Shown here: positions 24,838 to 53,715 of the stretch, one piece after another
Layout: every line of letters starts with the position of its first letter
Numbering within the stretch: the first letter of the stretch is position 1
Sequence record: PQ642267
DNA length: 64,000 nucleotides
DNA from: Shigella phage SH-2
Strand: one strand, 5' to 3'
Position numbers and translations under genes: made by a program
The notes under the pieces: model-generated
Told to the model about the DNA's origin: nothing
What the model saw: the letters and a program-made list of their open reading frames with translations, nothing else
The model's database searches: none

Positions 24838-25401
24838 TTATTTATCTAGTTTAGTTATTATAGCTTCTGCGGCAGCTTTTAGCTTAGATGCGGTGTTAAT
24901 ACGATTTTTAATTTCAGTATACGCATCGCCAAGAACGTCAAGGCTATCAGAATAAACACTTACACTATTGCGTTCGCTATTTGAAATAGAACCTTTAGTT
25001 TTACGATCAAAATCGGTGTACACGTCTTGAAGATCACGGGCTGCCTTCTTTGCATCATCCAATGCATCAAGAGCTTTATTCAAAGCATTAACGTATTTTT
25101 TAGTGTCGAACATATTCTTAGAAATTTTAACAGGTGCGCGTTCAGGAGTAGCTAATGCAGATTTAGGAACCTGAGCGCCAGATGCCAATTTCTTAGAAAT
25201 TTTGAAAAACGCTTTATTGAATTTATTTTCTTGACTCATCGTAAAAGAACTATTATCGATGTTGTACATTTCAATAGCTTTAGCTTTCCACTTAAGAAAA
25301 TCGCCTCGGTCTTTTGGGTCCAAGTGGAAGAATACTTTAGTAAGATCTGCTTCAGATGGTAATTTTGCTGCTTCGGTTAAAAATTCGGCATAGGTTTTCA
25401 T
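24838..25401 (-). CDS. candidate capsid-targeted internal protein (187 aa, leader MKTYAEFLTE)
   Basis: N-terminus matches the leader of IPI/IPII (MK[TS]Y.[EQ]F...E); predicted gp21 site L-T-E/A. Confidence 0.55.
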   Translation of the reverse strand: MKTYAEFLTEAAKLPSEADLTKVFFHLDPKDRGDFLKWKAKAIEMYNIDNSSFTMSQENKFNKAFFKISKKLASGAQVPKSALATPERAPVKISKNMFDTKKYVNALNKALDALDDAKKAARDLQDVYTDFDRKTKGSISNSERNSVSVYSDSLDVLGDAYTEIKNRINTASKLKAAAEAIITKLDK

Positions 25402-25525: not shown

Positions 25526-25999
25526 TTATTTGATTTGTTTAGCAGACCAAATGCGGTCTTTGATGATTTTTTGGATGTCTTCAACATACTCTAGGTCATG
25601 AGCATGTGGGTTATCTTTGAAACTATAAGCACGAGCTAGTTTTTGGCCTTCAGTTTTGATTACTAAAAGCTCTTTAAGGATAGCTTCATATTTAGCGATA
25701 ATTCCTTTAACAATATTTTTTTCTTGTGCAGCTTTAGGATCTGCTTTAGGAGCAGGTTTACCCGAAGCCTTTGCAAAAGCAGCACCAGTAGCAACTAAAC
25801 TTTTCCAGGCCATACTAACCGCATTTCCTGTAAATCCTTCTGCTTTCATGTCGCGAGCAAACTGGAATCGTGATTCGTCAGAAGCATCTTTATAGGAATA
25901 TTTACCCGCTGCAATGGCTGCTTTTGCGACAGCTTGAATTTCGGTGCTAGATGCTTCATTTAACACCGCTTCATTTAAAAATTGAGCATATGATTTCAT
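25526..25999 (-). CDS. candidate capsid-targeted internal protein (157 aa, leader MKSYAQFLNE)
   Basis: Same leader class with L-N-E/A site; flanked by terminators; late promoter upstream. Confidence 0.55.
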   Translation of the reverse strand: MKSYAQFLNEAVLNEASSTEIQAVAKAAIAAGKYSYKDASDESRFQFARDMKAEGFTGNAVSMAWKSLVATGAAFAKASGKPAPKADPKAAQEKNIVKGIIAKYEAILKELLVIKTEGQKLARAYSFKDNPHAHDLEYVEDIQKIIKDRIWSAKQIK

Positions 26000-26038
26000 C
26001 TTATTTCCTGTTTTAATTCGTGATTTAATATACTACTA

Positions 26039-26046
26039 TATTTATA
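26039..26046 (-). promoter_or_regulatory. late promoter (TATAAATA on minus strand)
   Basis: Plus-strand TATTTATA at 26039-26046, ~40 nt upstream of ATG at 25999. Confidence 0.5.
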
Positions 26047-26048
26047 CT

Positions 26049-26075
26049 AAAAAGCCCCAACCTTTCGGTCGGGGC
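26049..26075 (-). terminator. rho-independent terminator (same hairpin as 25492-25516)
   Basis: GCCCCGACC-GAAA-GGTTGGGGC plus T-run on minus strand. Confidence 0.6.
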
Positions 26076-26128
26076 TAAGCCTTGCGGCAACCTTGTCGGG
26101 GTTCCACCTGCTAAGGCAAGTGTTTGTA

Positions 26129-26219
26129 CGAAACGCCGGGATTCGAACCCGGTTATTAAGCAGTTGACGCTACTCAATATTTTTAAAAGGCCATATCTCG
26201 ACCATATCCGAACGTTCCG
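26129..26219 (-). ncRNA. tRNA-like stable RNA candidate (canonical T-arm CCGGGTTCGAATCCCGG, atypical body)
   Basis: Minus-strand T-arm and a 7-bp acceptor-like pairing (CGGAACG/CGTTTCG) spanning ~91 nt; no standard cloverleaf found by eye. Confidence 0.3.
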
Positions 26220-26387
26220 TCAAAAACGCTACTCGGCTTACGGCAAAGATATTTCCTCGAATCGATAATTCGGTGCGCCGTTTCTGCTGTGATGTAAAGG
26301 GATATTAACAAATCGTAAAGATTTATTAAGACCAGTCCTTACGCAGGGAACATCAGTCCGACGACTTACCGGTAGCGACCCGGTTTC

Positions 26388-26738
26388 TTAATATTCTTTT
26401 AAAGCATCAATCTGTTCACGACGTTTACGCCATAAATCAATTGCTTCATACGCAGATTCAGCATTTCGAATTGGACGGCATTTATATAAAGATTTGTGAT
26501 TTTGATATTGTGTAGATAACGGAATTTTATCTAAAAGGTCTTTACGTTCAAAGTATTCGTAACCATCTAAGCCAAATGAACGATTTTTGAGAAATTGCCA
26601 ATGACCGTATTCGTTTTCGACATAAACATAATCCGCGTGTTGATAAAGCAAATTAATTACACGTTCAGAAATAACAGTGTCATTGTGATTAAAATAAAAT
26701 GTTAAATCATGAACTACTAAATAAACATTACCTTTCAT
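26388..26738 (-). CDS. hypothetical protein (116 aa)
   Basis: ORF track; lies between tRNA-Arg and the tRNA-like region. Confidence 0.4.
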   Translation of the reverse strand: MKGNVYLVVHDLTFYFNHNDTVISERVINLLYQHADYVYVENEYGHWQFLKNRSFGLDGYEYFERKDLLDKIPLSTQYQNHKSLYKCRPIRNAESAYEAIDLWRKRREQIDALKEY

Positions 26739-26754
26739 ATTTTCCTCACTTAAT

Positions 26755-26830
26755 TGGTCGAGGCAGTAGGGATCGAACCTACGACCTAGGACTTAGAAGG
26801 TCCTTGCTCTTCCTTCTGAGCTATGCCCCG
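26755..26830 (-). tRNA. tRNA-Arg (anticodon TCT), CCA encoded
   Basis: Manual fold: acceptor CGGGGCA/TGCCTCG, D-arm GCTC/GAGC, anticodon loop CTTCTAA, T-arm GTAGG-TTCGATC-CCTAC, 76 nt. Confidence 0.8.
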
Positions 26831-26833
26831 TAA

Positions 26834-27499
26834 TTAAAATTTCATTTTTCGACCTTTAAACCATCCTTCTGGAATTGGGTCAGTTTTCTTAATACGTTTA
26901 GAAACTTTTTCATCTAATGAATGAATCCACATCATACCAAATTGGGAATTCTTTTCTCCTTTCTGATGATTATTTTTAGCGTGAATTTCTTTCATTTTAT
27001 TAATAGTTTCAGGAGTATGATGCTTATTTAAAAATCTGCTATTATTTAAAAATTTTTCCTTGTATTCAGGAGTTGACCACAAACGTTTAAATACATTTGA
27101 ACCAATTTTACGATATTTTTCTTGAAGTAAAATATCATTTTCAAAACGTGATTTAAACGATTTAGCTCCTTTTAAACTAGCATCTTTCTTCTGGTTTAGC
27201 ATCCCAGGAATATTTATATGGTCCCATCCACCTTCACCACCAAGTTTTAAATTATACACATCTGGTCTATTTAAAAACTCTTCTGTGACAATATTTTTCT
27301 CAGCTTCAAGCATAGATTCTTTATCATCAAAATACTCTAATATTTCTTTAGAAAAATTTTCTATACCATACTTGTCTTGGGCTCTTTTTAATAATTTACC
27401 AGAACCCATATATCCATCATCTAAATTTTCGGTAGAATGCACACCAATATAAATTTTATTATTAATTTTATTTGTTATTTTATAAAGATAAAAATGCAT
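26834..27499 (-). CDS. segB: GIY-YIG homing endonuclease (SegB-like)
   Basis: YLYKI...IYIGVHST...YMGSG motif; ATG at 27497-27499 gives 221 aa; alternative ATG at 27541. Confidence 0.7.
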   Translation of the reverse strand: MHFYLYKITNKINNKIYIGVHSTENLDDGYMGSGKLLKRAQDKYGIENFSKEILEYFDDKESMLEAEKNIVTEEFLNRPDVYNLKLGGEGGWDHINIPGMLNQKKDASLKGAKSFKSRFENDILLQEKYRKIGSNVFKRLWSTPEYKEKFLNNSRFLNKHHTPETINKMKEIHAKNNHQKGEKNSQFGMMWIHSLDEKVSKRIKKTDPIPEGWFKGRKMKF

Positions 27500-27545
27500 A
27501 TCAGTCCCTAATAAAGAACTGAGCGTCTCACGACGAGTCATAAAT

Positions 27546-27619
<74 letters not shown>

Positions 27620-27624
27620 AAATT

Positions 27625-27711
27625 TGGTGCGAGAAGTGGGACTCGAACCCACAAGGAAATCATTCCGCAGCATTTTAAGTGCTGTGCCTTTACCAATTTG
27701 ACCATTCTCGC
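27625..27711 (-). tRNA. tRNA-Leu (anticodon TAA), class II long variable arm, CCA encoded
   Basis: Acceptor GCGAGAA/TTCTCGC, anticodon loop CTTAAAA, T-arm GTGGG-TTCGAGT-CCCAC, 87 nt. Confidence 0.8.
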
Positions 27712-27717
27712 TCTATA

Positions 27718-28350
27718 TTATTTATTACGTGAAAAAGATTGTTCTATCAATTCTGGACACTTTCGTTCTATCCATTTTCTAGCTTTTTGTGGGCTTATAC
27801 CTATTATTTTAGCAGCTTTACTAACCCATCCAAATTTAGAATAATCGATTTTAACTAATTCTTCGTAAATTTCATCAGTTAAAATGTTTTCATTAATATT
27901 TACCAGTAAATGATATAATTTATTATCATTAGCAATTTTAATGAATCTTTTATAGTTTCCGCCTTTACTTAAACCTAATGAAGTAATTGCAGATGATATA
28001 GTAGCAGAATTTAATAATGCGTTTAAAATTTCTTCATCACTAACATTATAACGCTTTTTATTATTTTTAATATTTTTACCAGCAAAAGTATCAGTTTGCG
28101 AATGGCAATTTGGACATAATAATCTTAAATTTGATTTAAGATGATTTTTGTTATTTCCGTCAATATGGTCTAATTGCAGAACAATATGCTTATTTTGCCA
28201 TTTTGAAATTTTACAAATTGCACACTCATATGGAAAAATATTTTCTTTTATTATTTTATCTTTCAGCTTTCCTGTACTAAAATTTGGATGTTTTCCTTCA
28301 AAAATTTCAGCTAATTTAGTATCCATAATATAATTCCCAATTATTAACAA
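27718..28350 (-). CDS. HNH homing endonuclease (mob-like) with C-terminal helix-turn-helix
   Basis: CAICK...H-x-DHIDGNNKN...CPNCH (HNH zinc motif); abuts the 5' end of tRNA-Leu. Confidence 0.65.
   Translation of the reverse strand: MLIIGNYIMDTKLAEIFEGKHPNFSTGKLKDKIIKENIFPYECAICKISKWQNKHIVLQLDHIDGNNKNHLKSNLRLLCPNCHSQTDTFAGKNIKNNKKRYNVSDEEILNALLNSATISSAITSLGLSKGGNYKRFIKIANDNKLYHLLVNINENILTDEIYEELVKIDYSKFGWVSKAAKIIGISPQKARKWIERKCPELIEQSFSRNK

Positions 28351-50574: not shown

Positions 50575-53715
<3,141 letters not shown>

Follow-up and report, generated by a model that had tools for sequence, protein, structure and literature searches.

Results

Identity of the region

Our analysis of a 64,000-nucleotide (nt) stretch of DNA from Shigella phage SH-2 (sequence record PQ642267; the whole stretch is called the window below) revealed a pair of small RNA genes on the minus strand. 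Judged from its sequence, the region is the rnaD and rnaC orthologues of this Tequatrovirus, at the tail of the transfer RNA (tRNA) operon that ends at the terminator at 26048-26076. We hold this identity, together with the structure and the processing context described below and apart from any proposal on function, with high confidence. The feature itself is already known: rnaC/rnaD orthologues are ordinary for a T4-like phage. Three points may be new: a fold of rnaC that was tested by covariation and includes kissing loops; the spread of both RNAs, as families, through tRNA arrays in Marfavirus and in many genera of Tevenvirinae; and the absence of an Rfam match together with frequent mis-annotation.

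The T4 reference annotation (NC_000866) places rnaC (T4s001) at 70908-71046 and rnaD (T4s002) at 71053-71171, and both were queried by BLAST against the window. The rnaC counterpart (26265-26127, minus strand) was 98.6% identical to T4 rnaC over 139/139 nt, with two substitutions: nt 66, which is unpaired, and nt 105, where a U-A pair becomes U.G. The rnaD counterpart (26388-26272, minus strand) was 87% identical to T4 rnaD over 118 nt. The region was matched by 760 phage records, mostly at 90-99% identity, which place the window in Tequatrovirus. In the numbering used here, position p of rnaC corresponds to window coordinate 26266-p. The parts of the locus are as follows.

26048..26076, minus strand: intrinsic terminator of the tRNA/rnaD/rnaC unit (hairpin and T run)
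26105..26122, minus strand: 3' trailer hairpin CACUUGC-CUUA-GCAGGUG (read from the sequence)
26127..26265, minus strand: rnaC (species 1 RNA) orthologue, 139 nt (BLAST to T4, covariance model R1, minimum free energy fold)
26266..26271, minus strand: 6-nt spacer GAAUUA between rnaD and rnaC (alignment to T4)
26272..26391, minus strand: rnaD (species 2 RNA) orthologue, about 120 nt (BLAST to T4; consensus fold of 16 sequences)

A first-pass annotation had described about 300 base pairs (bp) here as a single tRNA-like stable RNA. The 306-nt span instead comprises two RNAs, rnaD (about 26391-26272) and rnaC (26265-26127), with the 6-nt spacer and the trailer hairpin (26122-26105). Its suggestion of a counterpart to the two stable RNAs of T4 was confirmed by BLAST homology: the genes are direct orthologues, and their order, strand, downstream terminator and membership of the tRNA operon are those of T4. 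The other option offered, a novel tRNA-derived RNA, is superfluous because the sequences match the annotated rnaC and rnaD of T4. One difference from T4 is that rnaD there starts 2 nt past tRNA-Arg, whereas here a 116-amino-acid (aa) open reading frame (ORF) intervenes, as in phage RB69.

Read along the minus strand, tRNA-Leu comes first, followed by tRNA-Arg, rnaD, rnaC and the terminator. The T arm CCGGG-TTCGAAT-CCCGG of the first-pass annotation was recovered as the reverse complement of window letters 26136-26152, and it therefore reads on the minus strand, like both tRNAs. The terminator likewise stands, also as a minus-strand feature (stem 26053-26076 plus T run): from 26076 to 26053 it has a 10-bp stem with seven G-C pairs, a GAAA loop and TTTTT, the make-up of an intrinsic (rho-independent) terminator. 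The trailer hairpin is kept even in JS98-like phages without rnaC, and no covariation was seen in it.

Fold of rnaC

Two forms of rnaC were distinguished by the interior of one arm, which is wholly different between them: type A, the T4-like form (17 distinct sequences), and type B (8). A "core" alignment joined 26 distinct sequences of both types, from at least nine phage genera, after removal of the non-homologous arm interior. The structural elements in the window are as follows.

26258..26265, minus strand: 5' strand of the acceptor stem, nt 1-8, UCGAUUCG, pairing with 26128-26135
26188..26257, minus strand: long "D-like" arm, nt 9-78, with H2 at its tip (covariation in type A)
26211..26230, minus strand: hairpin H2, nt 36-55, 7-bp stem (36-42/49-55), loop UUGACG at 26218-26223 (covariation)
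26154..26179, minus strand: arm H3, nt 87-112, 10-bp stem (87-96/103-112), loop CGUCAA at 26164-26169 (covariation)
26136..26152, minus strand: T arm CCGGG-UUCGAAU-CCCGG, nt 114-130, immediately next to the acceptor 3' strand, a tRNA-like arrangement
26128..26135, minus strand: 3' strand of the acceptor stem, nt 131-138, CGUUUCGU, followed by A139 (26127) and CAA (26124-26126)

Covariation analysis across phages, which the first-pass annotation had proposed as a check, supported the fold of rnaC in the 26 distinct sequences. The model built on the 17 full-length type-A sequences has 54 pairs in seven helices, with 94.3% of cells paired compared with 36-46% in slid controls; 14 pairs changed on both sides, and the observed covariation was reached by 0/500 shuffles. 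In the core alignment, 90.8% of cells were paired (slid controls, 33-50%), and 18 pairs were compensatory. The minimum free energy fold of the window rnaC (-50.2 kcal/mol, z = -4.55, 0/200 shuffles as stable) reproduced the comparative model. The covariance model R1, built from type A, found a single copy in the window (166 bits, E 1e-38); it scored 74-90 bits on type B and at most 26 bits on ordinary tRNAs.

The acceptor stem, of 7-8 bp, is made of the 5' and 3' ends of rnaC itself, and its ends fall on the mature ends annotated for the T4 RNA, as well as on the limits of the slot that rnaC fills between tRNAs. Nucleotides 1-8 and 131-138 adjoin the T arm (114-130), with covariation at pair 4/135 (A-U in 10 sequences, G-C in 16) and in the T stem. 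The acceptor stem of phage fHe-Yen9-01 carries four substitutions, and all seven of its pairs are canonical. The T stem (114-118/126-130) was 100% paired in the 26 sequences, with compensatory changes in two of its five pairs (G-C / U-A / A-U).

H3 is separated from the T arm by a single nucleotide and is preceded by an A-rich linker. In the core alignment 93.5% of its cells are paired, and eight of its ten pairs change on both sides. The long arm consists of helices 9-11/76-78, 15-20/67-72, 22-27/60-65 and 30-32/56-58; its cells are 99-100% paired in type A (17 sequences), where three pairs are compensatory. All five inner stem pairs of H2 covary across both arm types.

Complementary loops and a proposed kissing contact

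The 6-nt loops of H2 and H3 were complementary at 6/6 positions by Watson-Crick pairing in 26/26 distinct sequences. The pair is UUGACG/CGUCAA in most, UUGAUG/CAUCAA in fHe-Yen9-01 and UUGGCG/CGCCAA in Marfavirus, so that two independent double substitutions have kept the match. In the eight phages of type B the long arm that bears H2 is swapped for another of unrelated sequence, and the corresponding hexamer (UUGACG or UUGGCG) is still shown in a 6-nt loop. From this sequence pattern we take the H2 and H3 loops to form a 6-bp kissing contact, within one molecule or between two. The two 6-nt loops with full Watson-Crick complementarity recall HIV TAR-TAR* and the L2-L3 contact of the lysine riboswitch. 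The analogy is one of motif only, since in rnaC the loops belong to a tRNA-like four-way junction. A link between the loop sequence and a particular anticodon was looked for by eye, as was base pairing between rnaC and rnaD; nothing convincing was found for either.

Likeness to tRNA and other RNAs

The first-pass annotation was correct that no standard tRNA lies here. ARAGORN called just the tRNAs at 26755-26830 and 27625-27711, and the same two tRNAs were all that Rfam 15 yielded under gathering and permissive thresholds. The rnaD/rnaC region gave no RF00005 match, whether judged by the gathering score or with E allowed up to 10. Among the other permissive Rfam matches within 25900-26900, none exceeded 18 bits or had an E value below 0.5, which is chance level, and the region did not resolve into ordinary tRNAs. 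Of the tRNA-type models, tRNA-Sec came closest, with 16.6 bits (E=3.3; cut-off, 47). Transfer-messenger RNA (tmRNA) was searched for with ARAGORN and Rfam, and none was found. The T-loop motif GGTTCRANYCC occurs four times in the window, where 0.2 are expected, and three of these are tRNA-Arg, tRNA-Leu and rnaC. The fourth (52798-52808, minus strand, GGTTCAAACCC) was judged to be chance because it lies inside a 610-aa ORF on the plus strand (51880-53712) and has no flanking stem.

Like a canonical tRNA, rnaC has a 7-8-bp acceptor stem contiguous with a 5-bp T stem and, in most lineages, the T loop UUCGAAU; it also holds a gene slot in tRNA arrays, with tRNA-like spacers. It differs in its length of 139 nt, in having no 7-nt anticodon loop, and in the composite arm of about 70 nt in place of the D arm. 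T4 rnaC is annotated to end at A139, and the encoded tail beyond the discriminator (window 26124-26126) reads N-CAA in 25/26 sequences and CAG in Ursula, in contrast to the CCA of tRNA. Three readings of the CAA tail are conceivable: a CCA that has degenerated, a signal for processing, or a feature that blocks aminoacylation.

The tRNA-like domain of tmRNA, the tRNA-like structures of plant viruses and YrlA/Y-RNA-like RNAs are acceptor/T-arm mimics that engage tRNA enzymes and do not decode. By analogy, rnaC may be built on the same idea, an acceptor/T-arm mimic joined to non-tRNA structure. It differs from these in that no sequence or covariance-model match was found and in that it has no tag reading frame; moreover, the ends of YrlA form the Ro-binding stem, whereas those of rnaC form the acceptor stem.

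Structure of rnaD

The consensus fold of rnaD was derived from 16 distinct sequences. Two elements were placed in the window.

26368..26384, minus strand: rnaD 5' hairpin ACCGG-GUCGCUA-CCGGU (compensatory closing pair)
26273..26365, minus strand: rnaD long arm, base helix GUCGUCG/CGGCG-C-AC invariant (alignment)

The window rnaD lies directly upstream of rnaC and has the conserved 5' hairpin and base helix. The consensus of the hairpin is (A/G)CCGG-GUCGCUA-CCGG(U/C), with a closing pair that is A-U in 13 sequences, G-C in two and G-U in one; a terminator scan also flagged the inverted repeat at 26368-26384 on the plus strand. Columns 40/112 of the long arm are U-A in nine sequences and A-U in six. 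The tip of the arm is hypervariable: three cassettes, unrelated to one another, occur in close relatives, and each folds as a hairpin. Taken alone, the window rnaD is not unusually stable (z = -1.6).

A profile search picked up homologues of the rnaD core in Marfavirus (E 1e-6) and in Moonvirus KM16 (E 0.004), in both cases within tRNA arrays.

L140 1007-1083, L141 1067-1143 and L142 497-578: remote rnaD-core homologues (AAGUCGUCGG ... GUUCCCUG ... UCACAGC..GAAxCGGCGCA) of Marfavirus phages and Moonvirus KM16

These have shorter apical arms and fill gaps in the tRNA arrays. The KM16 homologue lies directly 3' of a tRNA and has a different 5' hairpin.

Distribution in other phages

Homologues of rnaC were found in at least nine genera. 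They include Kanagawavirus (Entb_45, Kosakonia 305), Moonvirus (Moon, KM16, NM4.3), Karamvirus (Pet-CM3-4, KMB17, KMB20), Gelderlandvirus (Melville), Tegunavirus (fHe-Yen9-01) and Marfavirus (PWKp18, whose variant is shared by Clarke_MM3, a phage with no genus given in its record). Further homologues occur in Edwardsiella phage PEi20 and the unclassified Citrobacter phage Ursula, and Mosigvirus RB69 has both rnaC and rnaD, unannotated (NC_004928 74156-74422). The rnaC sequence was at least 99% identical in 490/750 records.

In Moon, Pet-CM3-4 and Melville, rnaC sits flush between tRNAs, with tRNA-Met or tRNA-Trp upstream and tRNA-Gly downstream; it directly follows tRNA-Trp in Ursula and tRNA-Met in Entb_45. 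The spacer between the upstream tRNA and rnaC is 5-7 nt in these arrays, which indicates that rnaC fills a tRNA slot in them. Spacers of about 5-6 nt in other genera show the pattern AAWWA. In five JS98-like contigs (L145, L147, L148, L149 and L150), exactly the rnaC module is absent, with GGCGCACCGAA joined directly to CACTTGCC; the same contigs keep rnaD, the trailer hairpin and the terminator. The absence may be a deletion or a never-inserted state, and the exactness of the loss suggests that rnaC behaves as a discrete cassette.

The pattern of the rnaC T arm and acceptor stem had no match in a search of one genome each of 185,579 bacterial and archaeal species. A metagenome scan returned T4-like and Marfa-like contigs only and added almost no diversity. 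A loose loop-based DNA pattern, run on viral contigs, gave mostly chance matches (L023 onward), and those sampled had no model hit; the pattern matches in L012, an ordinary tRNA, and in L155 were likewise chance.

In most deposited genomes of T4-like phages, rnaC and rnaD either carry no annotation or are overlaid with coding sequences (CDSs) for a "hypothetical protein". The rnaC site is labelled "tRNA-Lys" in the vB_EcoM_G2133 record.

Neighbouring genes

The tRNA cluster of the window (26755-28350, minus strand) is down to two genes, tRNA-Arg(TCT) at 26755-26830 and tRNA-Leu(TAA) at 27625-27711, both on the minus strand. ORFs of the homing-endonuclease type are interleaved: a 235-aa GIY-YIG ORF (26834-27541, phrog_314) and a 210-aa HNH ORF (27718-28350, phrog_14736). 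The tRNA region of T4 differs, with eight tRNAs and segB as the only such ORF. The tRNA-Arg of the window is of the RB69/JS98 sequence type, unlike that of T4. The 116-aa ORF (26388-26738, minus strand, phrog_3355) lies between tRNA-Arg and rnaD, and the same layout is found in RB69, where the ORF is ORF150c. Downstream of the terminator are two adjacent paralogous ORFs on the minus strand, of 187 aa (24838-25401) and 157 aa (25526-25999); both match phrog_2280 and begin MK(T/S)YA(E/Q)FL.

Discussion

Expression and processing

We propose that rnaD and rnaC form the last part of the tRNA operon transcript, with transcription stopping at the terminator. rnaC would then be cut from the precursor like a tRNA, by ribonuclease (RNase) P at its 5' end and by trimming at its 3' end; such excision is suggested because rnaC has an acceptor/T-arm module and occupies a tRNA slot, and this acceptor/T arrangement is what tRNA-processing enzymes recognise. 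Two more arms extend from the junction of the fold, the 10-bp arm with CGUCAA and the composite arm with UUGACG, and we take their loops to kiss. Because the H2 and H3 loops kiss in this model, rnaC would have no free 7-nt anticodon-like loop, and it presumably cannot decode, since the loop is locked and CCA is lacking. rnaD consists of its 5' hairpin and a long rod with a fast-evolving tip.

In T4, the tRNA operon and both RNAs are made as one primary transcript of about 1.75 kilobases that terminates after species I (PMC2330249). Both T4 RNAs have been classed as late, and RNAC was detected by northern blot (PMC9697503); the blot speaks for RNAC because the probes were RNAC and host ssrA (PMC9697503). 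Late-promoter motifs (TATAAATA) occur 22 times in the window, where 10.8 are expected, and two on the minus strand lie near the RNA genes. The motif at 26039-26046 is just past the terminator and ahead of the 157-aa ORF. The other, at 27211-27218, falls within the GIY-YIG ORF, some 820 nt before the start of rnaD, and could account for the reported late expression of both RNAs.

Proposed function

The likeliest function of rnaC, which we put forward tentatively, is that of a tRNA mimic that does not decode and that either titrates a host tRNA-binding factor or gives protection against it. Its candidate target would be a defence nuclease that attacks tRNA, or else an enzyme of processing or modification. 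In the T4-like phage BW-1, adaptation to E. coli ECOR34 produced a single convergent single-nucleotide polymorphism (SNP) in rnaD in 3/3 lines (PMC12685909), and virulence rose from 0.17 to 0.98 (PMC12685909). A role of rnaC and rnaD as accessory RNAs that affect host range would fit their patchy presence, their swapped modules, the BW-1 result and the lack of rnaC copies in the bacterial and archaeal genomes searched. The pseudo-ToxI RNA of phage PhiTE is a small phage RNA mimic in a host conflict, also with a patchy accessory distribution (PMC3594212), but it has no sequence or structural relation to rnaC or rnaD.

Several observations weigh against the interpretation given here. Two central U.U mismatches occur in the acceptor stem of all lineages but one, and 66% of its cells are paired; the acceptor stem is thus the weakest helix of the fold. 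The T loop of Kanagawavirus is non-canonical (UGCAUGC), which weakens the case for strict tRNA mimicry. The sequence evidence fits intramolecular and intermolecular kissing alike. The mature ends of rnaC and rnaD in this phage are predicted positions, placed by alignment to T4. Furthermore, rnaD is preceded here by the 116-aa ORF, whose TAA stop (26388-26390) overlaps the position of the T4 rnaD 5' end; since rnaD follows an ORF and not a tRNA, formation of its 5' end may differ from that in T4. As for function, the SNP that arose during adaptation to ECOR34 sits in rnaD, not in rnaC. The literature was searched for a function of rnaC or rnaD; accounts from 2010, 2022 and 2025 all call it unknown, and no experiment that assigns one was found.

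Alternative explanations

The competing accounts of function treat the two RNAs as something other than host-directed molecules. They might be cis-acting elements, serving as entry or stop sites for RNase P, E or III or protecting the 3' end of the tRNA precursor. They always occur inside tRNA arrays or at the array end, with the terminator just downstream, and their long irregular helices resemble RNase III substrates; T4 species 1 is, we presume, cleaved by RNase III in vitro. This account leaves unexplained the covarying kissing loops, which are kept on the different arm of type B, and it sits poorly with the variable position of rnaC in the arrays and with the JS98-like tRNA arrays that work without it. 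We therefore consider a cis-acting role unlikely. Quite unlikely, in our view, is that the RNAs are inert relics, that is, degenerate tRNA genes or stable processing by-products with no function of their own. The dispensability of rnaC in lineages such as the JS98-like phages, the imperfect acceptor stem, CAA in place of CCA and the lack of any function found in about 50 years would all agree with relics. They would not be expected to show strong purifying selection on structure, with 18 compensatory pairs and a loop match kept through two double substitutions, nor retention in at least nine genera with rnaC at least 99% identical in 490/750 records, nor a convergent adaptive SNP in rnaD.

Other accounts concern the structure itself. 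The first-pass annotation had seen an acceptor-like pairing of strands 91 nt apart, and this pairing is present (ACGGAACG, nt 46-53, with CGUUUCGU, nt 131-138); the tRNA-like body of about 94 nt that it would close, with a 45-nt 5' extension, differs from the fold backed by the comparative data. In the 17 type-A sequences, 92.6% of cells of this helix are paired, and the weak tRNA-Sec alignment of Rfam uses it. It shows no compensatory change, however: 49/135 alternates between G.U and an A.C mismatch (nine versus eight sequences), nt 135 covaries with nt 4 in Watson-Crick fashion, and by inspection the helix is broken in 8/8 type-B sequences. It is also mutually exclusive with H2 and the kissing loops, both of which covary, and the annotated mature T4 RNA begins at nt 1, not nt 46. 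We regard this fold as very unlikely to be the correct one; the pairing might be a minor alternative conformer in type-A phages. The loop complementarity could reflect a DNA-level inverted repeat, TTGACG/CGTCAA, resembling a -35 element (TTGACa) and bound by a DNA-binding protein or sigma factor. TTGACG matches five of the six letters of the sigma-70 -35 consensus, TTG is invariant in all three variants, and the covariation preserves the inverted-repeat symmetry that a dimeric DNA binder would need. Yet the hexamers are the exact loops of two covariation-backed hairpins in an RNA detected by northern blot in T4, and no matching -10 element stood out in a promoter scan. The DNA-level reading is less parsimonious than RNA kissing, and its probability is slight. 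Least credible of all is that the region serves to encode small proteins. ORFs exist at 26025-26177 (50 aa), 26183-26311 (42 aa) and, on the plus strand, 26164-26268 (34 aa), and many deposited genomes annotate CDSs here; the substitutions nevertheless track RNA pairing and not codon structure, single-nucleotide indels separate close relatives (alignment columns 73 and 83), and the T4 reference annotates RNAs, with RNA sequencing and the RNAC northern blot behind it.

Significance

Neither RNA has a match in Rfam 15, and the deposited genomes routinely leave them unannotated or mislabelled. The fold of rnaC offers a specific, testable feature in its kissing loops. Together with the convergent rnaD mutation reported in 2025, it leads to concrete mutants and assays for the role of both RNAs. 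A wider proposal, which is conceivable and which we consider doubtful at present, is that rnaC belongs to an undescribed class of phage tRNA mimics acting as a decoy or inhibitor of a host tRNA-targeting immunity factor or tRNA enzyme, with rnaD and its hypervariable tip as a second host-range RNA. In this proposal the complete acceptor/T-arm module would admit rnaC to the pathways that process and bind tRNA, while the conserved 6-bp kissing contact would lock the loop equivalent to the anticodon and so bar decoding. If true, this would answer the question of about 50 years' standing as to the roles of the species 1 and species 2 RNAs of T4.

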